Source of the DNA: Nanobdellota archaeon
GTDB lineage: Archaea; Nanobdellota; Nanobdellia; Pacearchaeales; GW2011-AR1
Direction: 5' to 3'
Assembly (NCBI GenBank): GCA_030647095.1
Contig: JAUSKH010000063.1
Span: forward strand, 1-42,262
Length of the DNA: 42,262 nucleotides
Positions 19,368 to 40,631 of this stretch are shown here, in pieces. The position numbers and the translations under genes were made by a program. The first letter of the stretch is position 1; each line of letters begins with the position of its first letter. Below the pieces are notes generated by a model. The model made no database searches. It was not told the origin of the DNA and saw only the letters and a program-made list of their open reading frames with translations.

Positions 19368-19793
19368 TTATTTTATAGAGCTTATAAATCTTTCTAGTAA
19401 AGAAGCATATTCTTTTAGTTTATCTAGATTTATATTTATTATTTGATTTTTGTAAAATACTTTTAGATTAACTCCTTTCCTAAATTCGTTTTCACGTACC
19501 TTGTCTAATTTGTCTATATCTCTAAAAAATTCATAGAGATTAAGAGTTTCGCTGATTATCTGATTATTTATATAAATCCTCTTTAGTTGTATTAATTTTG
19601 CTCTTGGAGCGTTTGGTACAGGTTTCCACTTTCTTTCTTTCTTTGCTCTTTCTACAAGTCTGTCTATGCCTTTTTCAATCATGTTTTTCCATCTGGACAG
19701 AAGATTAATAATGACGTCACAAGTCTTCGTATACTTAAGGCTTACGTAAAGAAGATGGTCTGCACTAATTTTCTCTTTTATTATGTCTTCCAT
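19368..19793 (-). CDS. Hypothetical protein
   Basis: ORF only. Helical and basic. It lies upstream of minD on the same strand. Confidence 0.45.
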   Translation of the reverse strand: MEDIIKEKISADHLLYVSLKYTKTCDVIINLLSRWKNMIEKGIDRLVERAKKERKWKPVPNAPRAKLIQLKRIYINNQIISETLNLYEFFRDIDKLDKVRENEFRKGVNLKVFYKNQIININLDKLKEYASLLERFISSIK

Positions 19794-19873
19794 TAATAAA
19801 TATAAAATACCGAATGGATGTTTAAAGGGTCATCCTATTTAAATACCTTTCTGAATTTAACGAGGATTAGTGT

Positions 19874-20209
19874 TTATGAGAGTTTCAAGATTGCTTCTGC
19901 TATATCTCCTGATTCTTCAAGAGCTTTTTTTGCTTCTTTCTCTGTTGCCCCTGTTTTTTCTATAATCAGTTTAATATCTTCTTCATTAGTTCTTTCTTCC
20001 GAAGGTTCTTCAGTGGCATCGCCAGCGATCTGCCAGGTTTCCTGTCCTGACATTGTGACTCTTTGTATAGATGGATTTTCAATTATAATTTTTGAATCTT
20101 GCTTTTCTATTATAACACGAGTTGCTTCTATCTCTTCCTGCGAGATTCCCATCTGTCGCATCATTGCCTGCATTTTTTTAGGATCTATTTTACCCATTCC
20201 TGGAAACAT
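19874..20209 (-). CDS. nac: Nascent polypeptide-associated complex protein (archaeal NAC)
   Basis: N-terminal KKMQAMMRQMGI, then the NAC beta-barrel region, then a C-terminal UBA-like segment (EEDIKLIIEKTGATEKEAKKALEESGDIAEAI). Confidence 0.85.
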   Translation of the reverse strand: MFPGMGKIDPKKMQAMMRQMGISQEEIEATRVIIEKQDSKIIIENPSIQRVTMSGQETWQIAGDATEEPSEERTNEEDIKLIIEKTGATEKEAKKALEESGDIAEAILKLS

Positions 20210-20255
20210 GTAATATTCTAAGAAGGTTATTATTTATAGTTTTGCAATTTATATT

Positions 20256-25509: not shown

Positions 25510-25636
25510 GTTAATATGAATATCTATATTTCTGGTATAATTCTACTTGCAGTAGGATTTGTTTTTCAATTTATAGGAATATTAAAGGAGAATTACAAGC
25601 ACTAACATTTATTAAGCTTCATTAGGTTTTTTTAAT

Positions 25637-27139
25637 ATGGAAATAGATCCTCATAAAAAGGCAGAATTGGAAGATTTAGTTGCTCTACTGGAAAGCATAA
25701 GAGGAAGACATACAGAGTTGGTAACTGTTATGATTCCTGCTGGTTCAAATATTTTCCCTGTTGTAAGACAGCTTGAGGCAGAGAGGTCTACTGCAGAAAA
25801 TATAAAATCAAAGCAGACTAGGTCTGCTGTTATTGATTCTATTGATATGATTATTAGAGAATTAAAGAATTATAAACAGACGCCTCCAAATGGTCTTGCA
25901 CTTTTTGCTGGAAATATTTCTGATAAAGAAGGTATGCAGGACATTAAGATTTGGGCTATTGAACCTCCTAAGCCACTTAATGTTAGAATATACAGATGTG
26001 ATCAGGTTTTTGTTGTTGATCCTCTGAAAGAAATACTTGATGTTGAAGAGATTTATGGTTTGTTAGTTATTGATAGGCAGGGAGCAACAATAGGAGTTTT
26101 GGAAGGAAGGAGAATAAAAGTTTTACAGAAATTGACTTCCGGAGTTCCGGGGAAGGTAAGGGCTGGGGGACAGTGTCTTGCTCCAGATACTTTTGTTGAG
26201 ACGCGGGAAGGAAATAAAAAAATAAAAGATTTGAAAATTGGTGATAAGATTAAAGCCTTAGATATAGAAAAGCAAAAGATAATTTATACGAAGTGTATTA
26301 ATAAATGGAATAACAATAAAAATGAATGCTTTGAATTTACTACAAATAGTAATAAAACAATTATCTGTTCTGGAGATCATTCATTGTTTTTATATGATAA
26401 TTATAAGTTATTAGAAATACCGGCGAGTATGATATTAAAAGGAACTGTTTTAATTAATGATAATCAAGAATTTGAAGAGATAAATAGAATAAAAAAGATT
26501 AGTAAAGACATTCAGCTGGTTGATATAGAAACTGAGAATAAAAACTTTTTTGCTAATGGAGTATTGGTTCATAATTCATCTCAGAGATACCATAGAGTTA
26601 CAGAAGGGCTTGCTAAGGAGTTTTACAGGAGAGTGGCTGAAGAGATGAAAAGAATATTTTTTGACATGCCTAAGTTGAAGGGACTTTTAGTGGGAGGACC
26701 AATACCAACAAAAGAAGATTTTTTGAAAGAAGGGGATTTGGTTACTGTTTTGAAAGAAAAAGTTATTGCTATAAAGGATTTAGGTTATACTGATGAACAT
26801 GGTTTGGAGTTATTAGTTGAAGACTCATGGGAGGATATTGCACAACAGGAATTGATAAAAGAGAAGAATATTTTGAATAAATTTTTCCAGACTTTAGGAA
26901 AGGATTCAAAAATGACTGCTTACGGCTTAGAAAGAGTAAAACTTGCCTTACAGCGAGGGTCTGTTGGATTGCTTATTGTTTCTAAGGAACTTCCTAAAGA
27001 AGAGATAGCTGAATTGGAAAAGATGGCTGAGAACATTGGGGCAGAAATGGTTGTTGTTTCTAGTGATCATCAAGATGGCGAGCAATTCTTTAATTTGACT
27101 AAAGGTGTTGGTGCTGTTTTGAGATTCGCGATGGAATAA
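25637..27139 (+). CDS. prf1: Peptide chain release factor aRF1, containing a mini-intein
   Basis: NIKS motif (AENIKSKQ). The GGQ motif at residues 177-179 is followed by the intein. The extein resumes SSQRYHRVTEG. The C-terminal domain is typical of aRF1/eRF1. Confidence 0.9.
   Translation: MEIDPHKKAELEDLVALLESIRGRHTELVTVMIPAGSNIFPVVRQLEAERSTAENIKSKQTRSAVIDSIDMIIRELKNYKQTPPNGLALFAGNISDKEGMQDIKIWAIEPPKPLNVRIYRCDQVFVVDPLKEILDVEEIYGLLVIDRQGATIGVLEGRRIKVLQKLTSGVPGKVRAGGQCLAPDTFVETREGNKKIKDLKIGDKIKALDIEKQKIIYTKCINKWNNNKNECFEFTTNSNKTIICSGDHSLFLYDNYKLLEIPASMILKGTVLINDNQEFEEINRIKKISKDIQLVDIETENKNFFANGVLVHNSSQRYHRVTEGLAKEFYRRVAEEMKRIFFDMPKLKGLLVGGPIPTKEDFLKEGDLVTVLKEKVIAIKDLGYTDEHGLELLVEDSWEDIAQQELIKEKNILNKFFQTLGKDSKMTAYGLERVKLALQRGSVGLLIVSKELPKEEIAELEKMAENIGAEMVVVSSDHQDGEQFFNLTKGVGAVLRFAME
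26174..26575 (+). mobile_element. 134-aa mini-intein (no homing-endonuclease domain) inserted after GGQ of aRF1
   Basis: It starts with Cys (CLAPDTFVETREG, block A). Block B is like CSGDHSLF. The C-terminus is VDIETENKNFFANGVLVHN, followed by the +1 Ser. Removing it restores GGQ-S. Confidence 0.85.
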
Positions 27140-29951: not shown

Positions 29952-31982
29952 ATGGAGACAGAGCAGAAACAGAAACCTAAGCAGGAAGACCTTATTTTAG
30001 AGGCAAAGAAGTTTTTTGATACTCATAAGCAGGAGATAAGAGAGAGCGTTAGAAGCGGGTCCGGAGTTGTAAAACTTAGTTTCCCCTGGATTGCTGAATT
30101 CTCTCCCACTTTATCTGAGAATCTTTTGCAATTACCGGAGGAAACCATAGCAATTTTAGAAACTGCTTTGGAAGAATCTAATTTAATAGAAAGACCCAGA
30201 ATAAGACTTGTTGATTTGCCTGCTACTCAAGTTAAGATTAAAATTAGGGAGATAAGAGCAAGACATTTGGATCAGTTATTATGGATAGAAGGTATTGTAA
30301 GACAGGCTTCTGATGTTAGACCTCAAGTTGTTAATGCTAGATTTGAGTGTCCGAGTTGCGGAGCGATTTTATCTGTTCTTCAGATAGATAGGAAATTTAG
30401 GGAGCCAACCAGGTGTTCTTGTAATTGGCGCGGTGCTTTTAAGTTGCTTTCTAAGGAAATGGTTGATGCACAAAGACTTGTTCTTGAAGAATCACCAGAT
30501 ACACTTGAAGGAGGAGAACAGCCAAGAAGACTTAATGTGTTCTTGAAGGAAGATCTTGTTGATCCTAAAATGGAGGAAAGGACAACTCCAGGAAGTAGAG
30601 TGATGGTTTTTGGTGTGTTGAAGGAAGTACCTGTACCCTTACAGACAGGAGCTATTTCAACAAGATTTGATATTGCAATTGAAGCGAATAATATCGTTTC
30701 TAGAGAAGAATCTTTTGAAGATTTGGAAATTAACGAGGATGATATGAAGGAAATTAGGGAATTGTCTGCCGATCCTTATTTGTTTAAAAGATTGTCGCAA
30801 AGTCTTGCACCTAGTATATATGGGTTTGAGCAAATTAAAGAATCTGTTTTGTTACAGCTTTTTGGAGGTGTAAAGAAAGTTAAGTCAGATGGTGGAGCTA
30901 CTAGGGGGGATATTCATGTGTTGCTTGTTGGAGATCCAGGAGTCGCTAAATCTGTTCTGTTGAAGTATGTTTCAACTATTGCACCCAAAGGAAGATATGT
31001 TTCTGGTAAGGCTGTTACGGCCGCGGGATTGACTGCAGCTGTTGTGAAAGATGAATTCTTAAGAGGATGGGCGCTTGAGGCAGGAGCAATGGTTTTGGCT
31101 AATAAGGGAGTTCTTTGTGTTGATGAGATTGAAAAAATGGATGAACATGACAGAAGTACAATGCACGAATCTATGGAGCAGCAGTGTGTAACTATTTCTA
31201 AAGCTAATATTCATGCAACGCTTAGAGCTGAGACGACGGTACTTGCTGCTGGAAACCCTAAGCTTGGAAGATTTGATCCTTATACACCAATTCCTCAACA
31301 GATAGATATTTCTCCTGCTTTGTTGAGTAGATTTGACATCATTTTCATTATTAGGGACTTACCTAATAAGATACAGGATGAGGCAATTGCAACACATGTA
31401 CTAGAGGAACATAAGCAGGATGTTATTAGAGATGTAATTAATCCCAAGCTACTGAAAAAATATATTGCTTATGCAAAACAGAAAGTAAAACCTAAATTGA
31501 CTGATGGAGCTATTGAGGAAATAAAGAGTTTTTATATTAAACTTAGAAACCAGTCTGTGAAGTCTGATTCTGTAATAAAACCGATTCCTATTACTGCAAG
31601 ACAACTAGAAGGTATTATTAGATTGTCAGAAGCTCATGCTAAAATGCATTTGAGGGAAGAAGTAAACAGGGAAGATGCGAAGATTGCAATAAAACTTTTA
31701 AAATATTCTTTAATGCAAGTTGGTTCTGATGAGGAAACTAAGTCTTTTGATATTGACAAGATGACTACTGGAATTACTTCTTCTAAGAGGGGGAAGATAC
31801 TTTTAGTTAGAGAAGTAATTGCGCAGCTTGAATCTAAGTTAGGAAAATTGATTCCTATGGAAGAATTACATAAGGAAATTGCAGATAAAGTGACTGATAT
31901 TGAATTAGAAGATGCTTTGTCACATCTTTCAAAAAGCGGAGCAATTTTCATGCCTAAAAAGGGTTTTATACAGAGGATGTGA
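29952..31982 (+). CDS. mcm: MCM replicative helicase
   Basis: Zinc finger CPSCG...CSC, Walker A GDPGVAKS, Walker B CVDEIEKM and arginine finger SRFD. A C-terminal winged helix is present. No intein. Confidence 0.95.
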   Translation: METEQKQKPKQEDLILEAKKFFDTHKQEIRESVRSGSGVVKLSFPWIAEFSPTLSENLLQLPEETIAILETALEESNLIERPRIRLVDLPATQVKIKIREIRARHLDQLLWIEGIVRQASDVRPQVVNARFECPSCGAILSVLQIDRKFREPTRCSCNWRGAFKLLSKEMVDAQRLVLEESPDTLEGGEQPRRLNVFLKEDLVDPKMEERTTPGSRVMVFGVLKEVPVPLQTGAISTRFDIAIEANNIVSREESFEDLEINEDDMKEIRELSADPYLFKRLSQSLAPSIYGFEQIKESVLLQLFGGVKKVKSDGGATRGDIHVLLVGDPGVAKSVLLKYVSTIAPKGRYVSGKAVTAAGLTAAVVKDEFLRGWALEAGAMVLANKGVLCVDEIEKMDEHDRSTMHESMEQQCVTISKANIHATLRAETTVLAAGNPKLGRFDPYTPIPQQIDISPALLSRFDIIFIIRDLPNKIQDEAIATHVLEEHKQDVIRDVINPKLLKKYIAYAKQKVKPKLTDGAIEEIKSFYIKLRNQSVKSDSVIKPIPITARQLEGIIRLSEAHAKMHLREEVNREDAKIAIKLLKYSLMQVGSDEETKSFDIDKMTTGITSSKRGKILLVREVIAQLESKLGKLIPMEELHKEIADKVTDIELEDALSHLSKSGAIFMPKKGFIQRM

Positions 31983-32077: not shown

Positions 32078-32704
32078 ATGAATGAACAACTGACTAACCA
32101 ACCGATGAAGAGAAACGTGGCTTATAAGTTGCGTATTGGAAATGTTTTGGGTGGGAAAGTTATTCTTGATGGTGAGAGGTTTAAACATCTTGAAATAGAT
32201 GACAAGAAAGTTGTTAGAGTTAATATAATAGCAAATGTAGTTGATAAGTTTTTGCAAGAAGGTGAGAAGAAGTATGCTTCTTTAACTTTGGATGATGCTA
32301 CTGGACAGCTTAGAGTTAAATTGTTTGGAGAGGATGTTGAAAAAATAAATAAATTGAATCAGGGCGATACTGTTTTAGTAATTGGGCTTCTTAGAATTTG
32401 GAATAATGAGTTGTACGTAACGCCGGAAATTATGAAAAATAAAGAACCGAGTTATTTGCTTGTTAGAAAACTTGAAATTGAGTCAGAACAACCAAAGTCA
32501 ATAGGTAAAGAGGCAGTTGCAGTTTTGAAAGATAAAATAATTGCAATGGTTAAGGAAGCTGAGAAGGACGGGGGAGTAGATATTGGTAAAATGATTATGG
32601 AATTACACGAGCCTCCTGAAGTTATTAATCAAGAGGTTCGTAAGTTGCTGGAAGAAGGCATGGCTTATGAGCCTAGGCCAGGTAAATTGAGATATTTAGG
32701 ATAA
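32078..32704 (+). CDS. RPA32-like OB-fold plus winged-helix ssDNA-binding protein
   Basis: OB-fold pattern VRVNIIANVV...ASLTLDDATGQLRVKLFGE...GDTVLVIGLLRIWNNELYV. The C-terminal helical/winged-helix segment ends in EGMAYEPRPGKLRYL. The gene lies immediately downstream of mcm. Confidence 0.6.
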   Translation: MNEQLTNQPMKRNVAYKLRIGNVLGGKVILDGERFKHLEIDDKKVVRVNIIANVVDKFLQEGEKKYASLTLDDATGQLRVKLFGEDVEKINKLNQGDTVLVIGLLRIWNNELYVTPEIMKNKEPSYLLVRKLEIESEQPKSIGKEAVAVLKDKIIAMVKEAEKDGGVDIGKMIMELHEPPEVINQEVRKLLEEGMAYEPRPGKLRYLG

Positions 32705-33252
32705 TGGATTCAAGAAGATTTAACGGTTATCCAATGCCACAAGTCAACCACTTATGGGCAGCGAAAGTTCTAGGAATGGAATTAAATAATAACAAAGGTC
32801 CAGATTTGATAAATGCTTCAAATGATGTTGGAGTTGAATTAAAATTTATGTTGAGTAACAGATCCTCTAATGGGTGGACTGTTCAGAATCATCAATTAAG
32901 ATATAAAAATAATAATTTTACTTGTTATTGGGGTCTTGGAATTTATAATCTGGATAGAAATGTTAAAGAGATAGATACGGAGGATAAAGATCGATTAGAG
33001 GGGATGGTTGTTAAGCGTGAAATTTATATTGTTAATTATAACTGGATGAATCAATTTGCGCCTTCAAGAACCAGCGGTGGAACTGGTAGATCTAAATGGA
33101 ATTACGTCTTTAGATATGCAAAGTTTAAAAGTTTACCAAGAATAGTTGAAAGTTACGAAGTTGATAAGGGGATTGTCCATATCACTAGAGGTGTTAGAGA
33201 AGAAGATTTTTTTATGTCAAGATACTTGACAGAAAACTCCACACTTTACTAA
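32704..33252 (+). CDS. Hypothetical protein with a PD-(D/E)xK nuclease-like motif
   Basis: The start overlaps the upstream stop (TAATG). Residues E26, GPD34 and, 10 residues on, E45-L-K47 are arranged like a restriction-endonuclease/Hjc-type active site. The last 12 codons are supplied by repeat copy C. Confidence 0.4.
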   Translation: MDSRRFNGYPMPQVNHLWAAKVLGMELNNNKGPDLINASNDVGVELKFMLSNRSSNGWTVQNHQLRYKNNNFTCYWGLGIYNLDRNVKEIDTEDKDRLEGMVVKREIYIVNYNWMNQFAPSRTSGGTGRSKWNYVFRYAKFKSLPRIVESYEVDKGIVHITRGVREEDFFMSRYLTENSTLY

Positions 33253-33332: not shown

Positions 33333-33938
33333 TTATTTCTTTAATCCAAGTTTAGCCCAGAAGCCTTTCTTTTCTTTTGCAACGTTTAATCTTATTGCTA
33401 TCCAGATTAATAGGATTAGGGCTATGAAGAGAATTAAGAATCTCCAAATATTGCTGAAGTTTCTCCAATTAATGACTGTTCCGTAGAAGATTGCCCAGAT
33501 GGCTGAACCAATTAACGCTGAACCGACAGGTTCTATGCTGAGAATGAAGTAACCAATTATAAGTGTGACAATACCAGCAATAAGGGCAATCCAGAATACA
33601 TTTTTAGCATGCGTGTTTTGTTTATCATTAAATTGTTTGTTACAGAAATCACATTTTTTTAAAGAGGTTGTACAACCATTATCATCATAATCATAAATTG
33701 GTTGACCGCCATCAGCCGTGCATTGATTTGCTTGTTCTTGTAGCGTGCGTGAGAAAGTACAGTTTGGCGCTTCATAACTATAAGGTTTTACTGGATATGG
33801 TTCTGCATATGCATACATAGAAGAGTTGCAGAATTTATCGTATTGGGGACTTGGATAAAAAGCCTCTATTCCTTGCCAGAGGGCCAAAGCAAACACAATT
33901 ACTATCCCAATACCAAGTACAAAGTTTTTTACTTTCAC
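33333..33938 (-). CDS. Membrane protein with a Cys-rich extracytoplasmic domain
   Basis: N-terminal TM helix, 8 Cys in the middle domain, and 3 C-terminal TM helices. Confidence 0.5.
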   Translation of the reverse strand: MKVKNFVLGIGIVIVFALALWQGIEAFYPSPQYDKFCNSSMYAYAEPYPVKPYSYEAPNCTFSRTLQEQANQCTADGGQPIYDYDDNGCTTSLKKCDFCNKQFNDKQNTHAKNVFWIALIAGIVTLIIGYFILSIEPVGSALIGSAIWAIFYGTVINWRNFSNIWRFLILFIALILLIWIAIRLNVAKEKKGFWAKLGLKK

Positions 33939-34005: not shown

Positions 34006-35232
34006 TTATTGATTAATATAATAACGTACTTTTTTACCAATTTTCTCTTTTCTTATGGCTTCTGTTTTTACTAATTGAGTTAAATAGAGACTAATCATTT
34101 TATAAGATAAGTCTTTGGCTACTTCAGAAGGTCTTGAGCCAGGATTACATTTGAGATAATCTAATATCTGCTGGAATCTTTCTTCTTTAGTTTTTCCATT
34201 AAGTATTGGTGAGATTGATTTATACAAATTAATTGCTGATATAGTATACTCTCTGAAACTTTGGCTATTTACGAATAAATTATGAAATTTTTGCATTTCT
34301 TGTAAGGCGGGTCCATCACCAAGCGCTTCTTTTATGGGTTCAACAAAATTAGTTAAAAAATTTCTTCCTTTTTCAAGAATATTTACTTCGGACTGTTCTT
34401 CACCACCTTTCCAACGCTTTCTTCTTGCGAACTCCTGTTTTACAAGTTCAGATAGAACCATAGAAATATCTTTTCTCTTTAAAAGACCAAGCGCTTTTTT
34501 TACTTCAGCACCAGTAACACTTCCTCTTTGATGTAATAGTTGAGATATGTCTTTTGTGAGGTGCGAATTACTAATAATCGGTTTAACTTCATTAGGGCTC
34601 TTTTTTGATATCCATTCGTAAGTTATGTATCCTTCTCCTTTTCGCGTTTCTCCAATAGATTCATATTGCAAAAATCCTATACTAGAAAGAGATCTTATAG
34701 AGTTTAAAATAGTCACACGATTTATAGAGGTTATTTTTTCTAAATCAACTATGCTTTTTTTGTTTCCGCTTTTCAGAGCTTCAAGAGTTTTTATTATATT
34801 TAAGGGGGCTCTTGTTTCTCCTTTGGGACTAGTTTTCCTAAGAATTTTAAACATACTTTTTTGATTTTGTACTACGTAATTTAAAGAAAAAGCAGATATT
34901 GGTAATCCATAATCCTTCCCTGCCGTTGTTAAACAGTAACCAAAATACGAATTTTTATCTTCATCTTTTATAATCTCTTCTTCTGCTACAGTACCAGTAG
35001 AAAAAAGTGTGTTGCAGCAGTAATTCCTAAAACTTTTTTTAAGTGGAAGGTAAGTGCTCTTTCCAACAGTCCTTTTTACTTTAGCTCGTATCTCAGATTC
35101 ATTTGTTGGTATATTATTTAGATGCAAGAGAGTGATCATTTTAAACTCAGTATTTACTATGTTTAGAACTACATTTAATCTTCCTTCTAAGTCGTCTGGA
35201 AATGGAACTTCTTTGTGTGAAATAATTCTCAT
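34006..35232 (-). CDS. Uncharacterised protein built from about four winged-helix-like modules
   Basis: There are no enzymatic motifs. MarR/ArsR/PadR-like wHTH patterns recur, for example KSIVDLEKITSINRVTILNSIRSLSSIGFL, VTGAEVKKALGLLKRKDISMVLSELVKQEF and RPSEVAKDLSYKMISLYLTQLVKTEAI. Confidence 0.45.
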   Translation of the reverse strand: MRIISHKEVPFPDDLEGRLNVVLNIVNTEFKMITLLHLNNIPTNESEIRAKVKRTVGKSTYLPLKKSFRNYCCNTLFSTGTVAEEEIIKDEDKNSYFGYCLTTAGKDYGLPISAFSLNYVVQNQKSMFKILRKTSPKGETRAPLNIIKTLEALKSGNKKSIVDLEKITSINRVTILNSIRSLSSIGFLQYESIGETRKGEGYITYEWISKKSPNEVKPIISNSHLTKDISQLLHQRGSVTGAEVKKALGLLKRKDISMVLSELVKQEFARRKRWKGGEEQSEVNILEKGRNFLTNFVEPIKEALGDGPALQEMQKFHNLFVNSQSFREYTISAINLYKSISPILNGKTKEERFQQILDYLKCNPGSRPSEVAKDLSYKMISLYLTQLVKTEAIRKEKIGKKVRYYINQ

Positions 35233-38635: not shown

Positions 38636-39736
38636 ATGATAAAGGAAAAGAAAACAGTATTATTGGGTATGTCTGGAGGTGTAGATTCAAGTGTAGCAGC
38701 GCTTATTTTAAAAAAAGAAGGTTATAGAGTTATAGGCGCTTTTATGAAGAATTTTTCTGATACAAAGAATAAACTTACAGGAGAGTGTGCTTGGCAGGAA
38801 GAGAAAGCGATGGCACAGAAAATCGCTGCTATGCTTGAAATTCCTTTGATTATAATAGATTCTGAGGAAGAGTATAAGAAAGAGGTTGTTGACCCTATGT
38901 TTAAAGCTTATGCTAAAGGATTTACACCTAATCCTGATGTTTTATGCAATAAATTAATAAAATTTCCTGTTCTTTGGAAGAAAGCTCAAGAGTTGGGAGT
39001 TGATTATATTGCAACAGGGCATTACGTTAGGATTAGAAAGAGTTCTAAGGGATATGAAATGTTAAGAGGCAAAGATGATTATAAGGATCAATCTTATTTC
39101 TTGTATGAGTTGAATGAAAAAGATTTGGAGCATACACTTTTTCTTATGGGAGAGTATACTAAAGAGGAAGTAAGAAAGATTGCTAAAAAGAATGGATTTT
39201 ACAATTGGGATAAGAAAGGAACTAGTGGAGTTTGTTTTATCGGGAAGATAGACATGAAACATTTTCTTAAGCAGAGGATAAAAGAAAAAAAAGGCAATGT
39301 TGTTAATATGGAAGGGGAAGTTGTAGGGACACATCCAGGAAGTATGTTCTTTACAATCGGAGAAAGAGTTGGGAGTAAATATGGAATAGAAATAGATAGG
39401 AAAATTAGAAATATGACTGGGAAGAAATTGTATATAGCTGATAAAAGAAAAGGAAATGTGTTGGTTGTCGCTCCTTCTGGACATAAGGCTTTGAAAAGAA
39501 ATAAGGTTTTTATCAGGGAATTACATCTAATAAATAAGAAAGAGAAAATTAATGGGAAGGGTTTAAGAGCAAGAATTAGGCATTTAGGGAGTTTGAATAA
39601 AGGCATTTTAAAGAAAAATAAAGGAAGATGGATATTTACATTTGCTAAGCCTATAGAAGGAATTGCAGAAGGTCAGTCAATAGTCTTTTACAAAGGCGAA
39701 AAGGTTATTGGTGGGGGTGAGATGCGGGTGAAATAG
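38636..39736 (+). CDS. mnmA: tRNA-specific 2-thiouridylase MnmA
   Basis: PP-loop GMSGGVDSSVAA, catalytic Cys regions (NPDVLCN, GVCFIG) and a length of about 366 aa. Confidence 0.9.
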   Translation: MIKEKKTVLLGMSGGVDSSVAALILKKEGYRVIGAFMKNFSDTKNKLTGECAWQEEKAMAQKIAAMLEIPLIIIDSEEEYKKEVVDPMFKAYAKGFTPNPDVLCNKLIKFPVLWKKAQELGVDYIATGHYVRIRKSSKGYEMLRGKDDYKDQSYFLYELNEKDLEHTLFLMGEYTKEEVRKIAKKNGFYNWDKKGTSGVCFIGKIDMKHFLKQRIKEKKGNVVNMEGEVVGTHPGSMFFTIGERVGSKYGIEIDRKIRNMTGKKLYIADKRKGNVLVVAPSGHKALKRNKVFIRELHLINKKEKINGKGLRARIRHLGSLNKGILKKNKGRWIFTFAKPIEGIAEGQSIVFYKGEKVIGGGEMRVK

Positions 39737-40631
39737 TGGTTTGTAAATATTCTTCTAGAGTTTCTGGTATTATTTCTATAAGTGAGAATTTTTCTTCAGG
39801 ATGACTTTTGTTCCATTCAGATATATTATCTTTTAATGGAAAACGATATTTTAGACAGTAAGCTTTTCCACAAGATTCTTGGCCGCCGAAGGCGTGTTTT
39901 GCTCCAAAGACGGTTATAGTCTCTGTATCAAAATTATCTTTTATTAATTTAAGAAGGTAGTCTTCTCTTTGATCAGAATTATTGTATAAATCAATGTATA
40001 ATTTTTCTATCTGTTCTCTTTTTCTATCTCTTTCTTCTTTTGAATTTGTAGCTAGCATATCAGTGTATAATTTATCTATTTTATTTAATAATACTAAAGA
40101 TTTTTTATGTAGCTCTGGTTTTTCTGTTTTTTTTATTTCCCTTATTTTTTGTTCTTTGTACATTACTAATGCAGCACCTTCTTCTATCTTTGGAAGTTTT
40201 TCATTACCATCTTTATTAGAATATGTTTTTATATCTCCTTCGTAATCAGAGGGATATATGCCTTCTGGGTATACGGCAATGTTTGGATAAATAGAAGTTA
40301 AATAATCTAAGATAAGGTAGATATTGTTTTGTATTTCAGCCACTCTTTCAAGGCATTCTGTATTGCATTCATCATATGGCGGGAGATGCCTTTGAAGTAT
40401 GTGTACTAGGTTATATTTTGTATTATCGGTTTTATATTTCCTTACTTCTGCTGCCCCTGGAATGTAACTTGGAAAATAATCTAAGAATCTATTTTCAGAA
40501 TTTTCTTCTTTAACTATGGGTTGTTGAGAAATTGTTTGTATTGTTTTTTGTTGTAAGTTACAGGCAGGAATATTTAGAAGAGTTACTAGAGACAGACTTT
40601 TTATTATAGTTCTTGATAGTCTTCCTTGCAT
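39705..40631 (-). CDS. Secreted or lipoprotein-like hypothetical protein
   Basis: N-terminal signal-like segment with a lipobox-like LNIPAC. No motif recognised. The 3' end overlaps mnmA convergently by 32 nt. Confidence 0.45.
   Translation of the reverse strand: MQGRLSRTIIKSLSLVTLLNIPACNLQQKTIQTISQQPIVKEENSENRFLDYFPSYIPGAAEVRKYKTDNTKYNLVHILQRHLPPYDECNTECLERVAEIQNNIYLILDYLTSIYPNIAVYPEGIYPSDYEGDIKTYSNKDGNEKLPKIEEGAALVMYKEQKIREIKKTEKPELHKKSLVLLNKIDKLYTDMLATNSKEERDRKREQIEKLYIDLYNNSDQREDYLLKLIKDNFDTETITVFGAKHAFGGQESCGKAYCLKYRFPLKDNISEWNKSHPEEKFSLIEIIPETLEEYLQTTISPASHPHQ

Follow-up and report, generated by a model that had tools for sequence, protein, structure and literature searches.

The gene for the translation termination factor aRF1 on contig JAUSKH010000063.1 of a Nanobdellota archaeon, a stretch of 42,262 nucleotides that was analysed in full (hereafter the window), carries a 134-residue insert within its catalytic loop. 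The insert lies between Gln179, the last residue of the GGQ motif, and Ser314 of the precursor. It is very probably a genuine class-1 mini-intein, most likely competent for splicing. The motifs of the insert, its matches to curated profiles, its predicted fold and comparison with intein-free relatives all point in this direction.

The insert and its host protein

A mini-intein lying exactly between GGQ and Ser of aRF1 had been proposed from the letters of the DNA alone, and sequence, profile, fold and comparative evidence now support this original prediction. The coordinates that it gave, 26174-26575, are exact, codon 180 (TGT) following GGQ directly and in frame. It had also named a Cys at the start of the insert, a GDH in block B and a terminal HN followed by Ser, all of which are borne out by reading the DNA. 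Finally, it had noted that LAGLIDADG and HNH domains are missing, in agreement with profile scans that match intein and HINT models only.

The insert, scanned together with the next Ser, reaches 54.0 bits with the Pfam family Intein_splicing (PF14890; cut-off 35.8). The scores are 36.5 bits with TIGR01445, the model of the intein N-terminal region (cut-off 24.5), and 21.7 bits with TIGR01443, the model of the C-terminal region (cut-off 15.6). Because three curated intein models exceed their cut-offs, a chance resemblance to inteins is excluded. No LAGLIDADG, HNH or other endonuclease model was matched in the insert in the Pfam and NCBIfam scans. With 134 residues and nothing other than HINT or intein matches between its splicing halves, the insert has the make-up of a mini-intein. 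Moreover, it carries the class-1 set of residues, i.e., Cys1, SxxH in block B, Asp in block F, His-Asn in block G and Ser at position +1 (Table 1). Assignment to class 3, which is marked by a WCT triplet, was considered and rejected: block F (LVDIETENKNFFANG) is without Cys, block G reads VLVHN and the canonical Cys1 is present. The G+C content of the insert is 25.4%, as compared with about 37% in both exteins and 32% across the window. Weaker constraint under AT pressure or a foreign origin could each account for this low value, which is not decisive.

As concerns the host, the product of the whole open reading frame scores 362.5 bits, insert included, with the TIGR03676 aRF1_eRF1 equivalog (cut-off 234.7). 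Pfam eRF1_1, eRF1_2 and eRF1_3 all match, and family model, three-domain organization and motifs agree in identifying aRF1. Deletion of the insert leaves a complete aRF1 of 366 residues with NIKS, YxCxxxF and GGQS. The restoration of GGQS, which the original prediction had put forward, yields KVRAGGQSSQRYHR and runs gap-free against the aRF1 structure 4af1 and against eRF1 structures; in particular, RAGGQSSQRYHRV of the spliced protein stands opposite RKGGQSAQRFARL of 4af1. The alignment of the spliced extein with orthologues, by which the prediction was to be checked, extends end-to-end over 4af1 (5e-62), 3agk, eRF1 1dt9 and many ribosome complexes. Accordingly, eRF1_2 matches as a single 110-bit stretch after deletion, whereas with the insert in place the match is split into two and scores 91 bits. 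The residue at -1 is Gln179 and the C-extein opens with TCA TCT CAG AGA (Ser-Ser-Gln-Arg).

Intein-free relatives show the site in its empty state. The exteins of two of them (P0025 and P0030) are 81% and 80% identical to the window aRF1. Both genes are syntenic with that of the window, with ValRS upstream in either case and, for P0025, MCM downstream as well. Alignment of the DNA of the two empty alleles (loci L105 and L106) with the window leaves a clean 402-nucleotide gap between the Gln and Ser codons. Since syntenic alleles differ by such a clean insertion, the window carries an intein allele and not a lineage-specific loop. An ordinary lineage-specific insertion devoid of intein blocks, which had been named as the finding that would speak against an intein, is not what was found: intein blocks are present and orthologues are precisely without the insert. 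All 31 empty alleles of the sample described below read GGQS without interruption, and relative to them the insertion is in frame.

The fold of the insert was modelled with AlphaFold2 from an alignment of 50 homologous mini-inteins. The predicted structure is all-beta, with a mean predicted local distance difference test score of 96.7 and a predicted template modelling (TM) score of 0.89, and corresponds to a HINT fold. The best sequence match among solved structures, with a nearly full-length alignment, is the gp41-1 intein (E 3e-7 in a search of PDB sequences). Foldseek comparison of the model with the PDB also returns the gp41-1 intein first (TM-scores 0.82-0.88). Bacterial-intein-like (BIL) domains, Hedgehog domains and many intein splicing domains (NpuDnaB, SspDnaB, RecA) come next, at TM-scores of 0.8-0.89.

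Occupancy and evolution of the site in DPANN archaea

The aRF1 intein is not peculiar to the organism studied here. The site is polymorphic, being empty or filled by a mini or a full-size intein, and the intein is widespread in DPANN archaea. Of the candidates scored in a search of 5.8 billion proteins, 1,902 were aRF1 relatives, and the best 120 of these were analysed. Within these 120, a mini-intein (131-144 residues) is found in 57, a LAGLIDADG intein (430-501 residues) in 32, and the site is empty in 31. In all 89 intein-bearing relatives the insertion is at the GGQ/S junction, and the +1 residue is Ser in 89/89 occupied as in 31/31 empty alleles. The source names of the relatives suggest Nanoarchaeota, Pacearchaeota and Woesearchaeota.

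The junction was also searched as degenerate DNA with the pattern K-x3-G-G-Q-C-L-x-P-D-T (about 39 bits, about 2 chance matches expected). The 185,579 species-representative genomes of GTDB contain 104 matching loci, comprising 101 aRF1 junctions and 3 bacterial chance matches. These counts are lower bounds because alleles without P-D-T escape the pattern. Nearly all of the 101 loci bear DPANN labels; the full breakdown is Woesearchaeota (43), Nanoarchaeota (15), Micrarchaeota (10), Pacearchaeota (9), Aenigmatarchaeota (8), unspecified archaea (7), Nanohaloarchaea (4), 'Methanosarcinales' (3) and Diapherotrites/Iainarchaeum (2). As regards viral carriage, the pattern has no match in IMG/VR contigs. 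An assembly artefact can be set aside, the same junction being present in independent assemblies of more than 100 species. A presence outside DPANN was considered for the three GTDB contigs labelled 'uncultured Methanosarcinales archaeon' (L002, L061 and L075) and was not retained. The extein of L002 is 98% identical to that of L033, a Woesearchaeota metagenome-assembled genome, and L075 has its best matches in Woesearchaeota (67%). Because these complete aRF1 exteins match Woesearchaeota aRF1, the label of L002 and L075 is doubtful; the comparison is limited to these two contigs, the aRF1 gene of L061 being cut.

The names given to these proteins in databases also deserve a comment. Several intein-containing sequences (P0005, P0016, P0021, P0022, P0054, P0067 and P0072) are called 'hypothetical protein' at NCBI, whereas the name 'peptide chain release factor aRF-1' is given to intein-free relatives. 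One JGI entry is titled 'eRF1/intein/homing endonuclease'. Apparently, the intein defeats the automatic naming of aRF1, an essential marker gene.

At the GTDB loci, the aRF1 inteins fall into size classes of about 130-147, 163, 275, about 430 and about 500-512 residues. The class of about 430 residues carries LAGLIDADG_3 and that of about 500 residues HTH_3 and LAGLIDADG_3. The 275-residue form keeps one LAGLIDADG half, and the 163-residue form of Micrarchaeota is a deletion derivative of the local 512-residue form. The endonuclease of the full-size alleles maps between mini-intein positions 94 and 116, approximately, where the window intein has a short linker. Empty, full-size, partly degraded and mini alleles thus occur at one and the same site, as a homing cycle would lead one to expect. 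Being without an endonuclease, the window intein is predicted to be unable to home by itself.

Several positions are invariant in the 89 aRF1 inteins, namely Cys1, Trp45, Ser66, His69, Asp117, Asn124, Phe125, Ala127 and His133-Asn134, in addition to the +1 Ser. Average identity among the mini-inteins is as low as 49% across the splicing domain. The invariance of the catalytic positions in the face of this divergence indicates that selection keeps the splicing residues. The LAGLIDADG class of about 431 residues forms a tight clade (72-74% identity) and the mini-inteins are far more diverse, which would fit an endonuclease-bearing lineage now spreading alongside older mini-inteins.

Among the best 120 relatives, the exteins nearest to that of the window (78-81% identity) are all empty, whereas the closest intein reaches only 64% identity. 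A neighbour-joining tree of exteins mixes empty, mini and full-size alleles, apart from one deep group that is mini-only. Exteins that are nearly identical can harbour different occupants. Thus, P0012 and P0039 have exteins that are 97% identical and mini-inteins that are 37% identical; P0003 (mini) and P0097 (empty) share 96% of their extein residues, and P0008 (mini) and P0035 (full-size) 94%. The exteins of L002 (intein of 500 residues) and L033 (275 residues) are 98% identical and their inteins 47%. At the DNA level, extein identity is 84-90% for P0012/P0039 and P0003/P0097, and 90-91% for L002/L033. With extein DNA only 84-91% identical, the switches of occupant are not recent. In these three pairs no co-conversion tract is visible, mismatches being evenly spread without excess at the junctions. 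Pairwise distances of inteins and exteins are uncorrelated (rho -0.04 for mini-inteins, 0.03 for full-size inteins), in a sample that was picked by similarity to an intein-bearing query, which biases the test. The codon of the +1 Ser is TCN in 68 and AGY in 19 of 87 intein-bearing alleles, as against TCN in 3 and AGY in 4 of only 7 empty ones. With 87 occupied and 7 empty alleles, the association of codon family with intein state is not significant (Fisher p = 0.058). Such a skew may reflect endonuclease-resistant empty sites or co-conversion.

With the mini-intein as profile, a search of 1.84 billion representative proteins yielded 13,069 relatives of the HINT or intein type. aRF1 accounts for 23 of the best 150 matches and the others are mostly multi-HINT proteins. 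No donor host can be named, because the scores of multi-HINT proteins add up and dominate the top ranks. Several proteins of this kind surfaced in the search (P0122, P0124, P0123 and P0121): a T4-like portal protein matches the intein splicing domain in five stretches, a B12-binding radical SAM protein contains several HINT domains, PT-HINT is repeated four times in a subtilase-PKD protein, and Tim44-like proteins carry four HINT domains.

Proposed splicing, competing readings and genomic context

In the scheme that we favour, the HINT domain would fold first within the 56.6-kDa precursor. Cys180 would then attack the carbonyl of Gln179 in an N-S acyl shift, and the hydroxyl of Ser314 would take over the N-extein by transesterification. 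Cyclization of Asn313, aided by His312 and Asp296, would free the 15.5-kDa intein. Lastly, an O-N shift would create a normal Gln-Ser bond; the resulting aRF1, of 41.1 kDa, would have its GGQS loop intact. These steps apply standard class-1 chemistry to the residues that are present; we infer both this chemistry and the precursor's lack of activity. The GGQ loop of eRF1 and aRF1 must reach the peptidyl-transferase centre. For this reason, a precursor with a 134-residue domain in the loop should be inactive in release, and production of active aRF1 from this gene would therefore require splicing. A six-frame search of the 42-kb window revealed no second aRF1, no pelota and no second intein.

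Some observations, however, weigh against a splicing-competent intein on which termination depends. The splicing of the window allele and of its relatives is deduced from the integrity of catalytic residues. Block B starts with Ser, which the active gp41-1 intein shares, in place of the Thr of most inteins, and the residue at -1 is Gln, which may affect the splicing rate. A second, intein-free aRF1 may also lie in the genome beyond the 42-kb window. Finally, the low G+C content of the insert (25% vs. 37%) would fit relaxed constraint as well.

Two alternatives deny that the insert is a functional intein. It could be a HINT domain other than an intein (bacterial-intein-like or Hedgehog-type) or a lineage-specific insertion, either retained in mature aRF1 or undergoing cleavage only, but this can hardly be believed. 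The Foldseek matches to BIL2, to a Clostridium BIL domain and to a Hedgehog autoprocessing domain (TM-scores 0.85-0.89) are expected because all of these share the HINT fold. At the level of profiles, Hint, PT-HINT and Hint_2 stay below their cut-offs (28.9 vs. 29.7, 24.8 vs. 27.7 and 22.8 vs. 28.4, respectively), whereas Intein_splicing is above its own. In addition, the full intein set of Cys1, His-Asn and +1 Ser is present, and the insertion interrupts a universally conserved catalytic motif that orthologues have precisely without it. The second alternative is a dead insertion, where the intein does not splice, the aRF1 copy of the window is non-functional and termination is ensured by another genomic copy. 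The markedly lower G+C content of the insert and a view limited to 42 kb of the genome leave room for this idea. It is nevertheless very improbable, considering that the open reading frame is intact and that no catalytic residue has been lost, all of them being invariant across the 89 alleles. Furthermore, NIKS, YxCxxxF and GGQS are conserved in the exteins, whose score lies far over the aRF1 equivalog cut-off, the gene belongs to a conserved ValRS-aRF1-MCM neighbourhood as does the aRF1 of relatives, and the window holds no other copy.

A third alternative accepts splicing but makes it conditional: the intein would splice only under certain redox, temperature or host-contact conditions and would thereby gate the supply of active release factor and the efficiency of termination. 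We regard this as unlikely. As the intein occupies the catalytic loop of a factor that is essential, the level of active aRF1 would be set by the splicing rate, and endonuclease-less mini-inteins persist at the GGQ/S junction in many lineages. Cys41, found in 44 of the 57 mini-inteins and not in full-size forms, could in principle form a disulfide with Cys1, and a published study is reported to argue for a regulatory role of splicing in the RadA inteins of archaea (PMC11409957). On the other hand, no feature of the sequence demonstrates conditionality and Cys41 is not invariant. The persistence of mini-inteins is equally explained if imprecise deletion is impossible in an essential catalytic loop, and empty alleles in close relatives show that the intein is dispensable. 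An extended version, to which we give equally little credence, would be a DPANN-wide post-translational gate on termination that acts via the splicing rate and depends perhaps on redox state or other conditions through Cys1 and the semi-conserved Cys41. The precursor might then compete for the ribosomal A site, and mini-inteins would owe their retention, and their exchange between near-identical aRF1 genes, to their usefulness. On balance, a splicing-competent mini-intein of the ordinary class-1 type remains the preferred explanation.

The aRF1 gene lies in a housekeeping environment. Its neighbours encode DNA ligase, glycosyltransferases, ScpB, TFE-alpha, AlaRS and an endonuclease III-like glycosylase. 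ValRS is immediately upstream of aRF1; further neighbours are a B12-binding radical SAM protein (opposite strand), an AsnC-type regulator, MCM, aIF2-beta and an MnmA-like tRNA thiolase. Together with the names of the closest aRF1 relatives, this gene content assigns the organism to DPANN archaea of the Nanoarchaeota, Pacearchaeota or Woesearchaeota type. MCM is among the commonest archaeal intein hosts, yet aRF1 is the only intein host in the 42-kb window. Six open reading frames have no Pfam match at E <= 0.001, and neither tRNA genes nor Rfam families at the gathering threshold were detected in window positions 1-42262. An A/T-rich, TATA-like element (ATTTATTAAG) is located at 25607-25616, about 25 nucleotides upstream of the aRF1 start codon at 25637. 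It would fit an archaeal promoter, in which case the leader of the mRNA would be very short or absent.

Table 1. Positions of the aRF1 gene, its intein and other features of the window
Feature	Position	Strand	Description
aRF1 precursor gene	25637..27139	+	500 codons and stop; 56.6-kDa precursor; TIGR03676, Pfam eRF1_1/2/3
N-extein, residues 1-179	25637..26173	+	Domain N and start of domain M, GGQ at end; eRF1_1 at residues 19-133
NIKS, residues 55-58	25799-25810	+	Stop-codon recognition (motif location)
YRCDQVF (YxCxxxF), residues 119-125	25991-26011	+	Stop-codon recognition (motif location)
GGQ codons, Gly177-Gly178-Gln179	26165..26173	+	Catalytic peptidyl-tRNA hydrolysis motif; aligned with GGQ of solved aRF1/eRF1
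Mini-intein (putative), 134 residues	26174..26575	+	402 nucleotides; 15.5 kDa; class 1, without homing endonuclease; PF14890, TIGR01445, TIGR01443
Cys1 (precursor Cys180)	26174..26176	+	Block A nucleophile; TGT; invariant in 89/89 aRF1 inteins
Block B S-G-D-H (intein Ser66..His69)	26369..26380	+	TxxH equivalent; Ser66 and His69 invariant in 89/89
Block F Asp117	26522..26524	+	Within LVDIETENKNFFANG; invariant in 89/89
Block G His133-Asn134	26570..26575	+	Penultimate His, terminal Asn; CAT AAT; invariant in 89/89
+1 Ser (precursor Ser314)	26576..26578	+	C-extein nucleophile, native Ser of GGQS; codon TCA
C-extein, 187 residues and stop	26576..27139	+	Remainder of domain M and domain C; eRF1_2 and eRF1_3 matches
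MCM helicase	29952-31982	+	676 residues; complete, intein-free
Open reading frames without Pfam match	32704-33252; 33333-33938; 34006-35232; 39705-40631; 19368-19793; 19818-20213		131-408 residues

Significance and relation to known inteins

If splicing is obligatory, an intein that splits GGQ makes every termination event in the cell dependent on protein splicing, and a translation-termination factor is added to the list of intein hosts. The coexistence of empty, mini, degraded and full-size alleles at one site in many DPANN lineages represents a natural data set for the study of the homing cycle. Mini-inteins of 131-147 residues with Cys1 and Ser+1, related to the fast gp41-1 intein, could serve as compact splicing tools. 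On the practical side, if DPANN genomes were annotated with inteins in mind, a core marker that is now mostly 'hypothetical protein' at NCBI would be recovered.

Inteins cluster in replication and repair proteins. A 2016 survey of bacterial and archaeal inteins describes core transcription and translation components as having few of them; its main text lists aIF2 among the hosts and contains no release factor (PMC4760082). A full-text literature search found no publication on an intein in aRF1 or eRF1. A paper on Bodo saltans virus mentions both an intein and a release factor, but in unrelated passages, and was discarded. NCBIfam holds 'intein-containing' exception models for other proteins and none for aRF1. 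The original prediction had not recognized a standard intein allele in this host and site, which fits the outcome of the literature search, the main text of the survey and the lack of such an NCBIfam model. Host and site are thus apparently undescribed, the mechanism being conventional and the kind of element known. Intein-bearing aRF1 sequences are nonetheless already present in public databases, in hundreds.

The closest characterized relative is the gp41-1 intein, from a metagenomic cyanophage-like gp41 helicase (PDB 6qaz and 6riz; TM-scores 0.82-0.88, 26% identity to the window intein). Both have Cys1, SxxH in block B, a terminal His-Asn, a size of about 125-135 residues and Ser at +1. However, gp41-1 is naturally split and belongs to a phage helicase, whereas the window intein is contiguous and resides in a cellular translation factor. 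The full-size DPANN aRF1 inteins (P0032 and L001 with about 431 residues; L006, L013 and L038 with 500-512 residues) occupy the same GGQ/S site and have the invariant splicing residues and a homologous splicing domain. They differ in carrying LAGLIDADG_3, together with HTH_3 in the class of about 500 residues, and identity between their splicing domains and those of the mini-inteins is only about 36%. In size and make-up, the window intein may also be likened to natural archaeal mini-inteins such as Mth RIR1 (134 residues), which are contiguous, about 134 residues long, devoid of endonuclease and hosted by an essential archaeal protein. Mth RIR1 differs in its host, a ribonucleotide reductase. 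Lastly, the inteins of archaeal aIF2/IF-2 (eIF5B-type), a host listed for archaea in the survey cited above (PMC4760082), likewise reside in a translation factor, and the NCBIfam model PRK14845 (aIF2/IF-2) gives a weak match to the C-terminal splicing region of the window insert. In these inteins the host is an initiation GTPase, the site is the P-loop region and an endonuclease is usual; the aRF1 intein of the window differs in all three respects.

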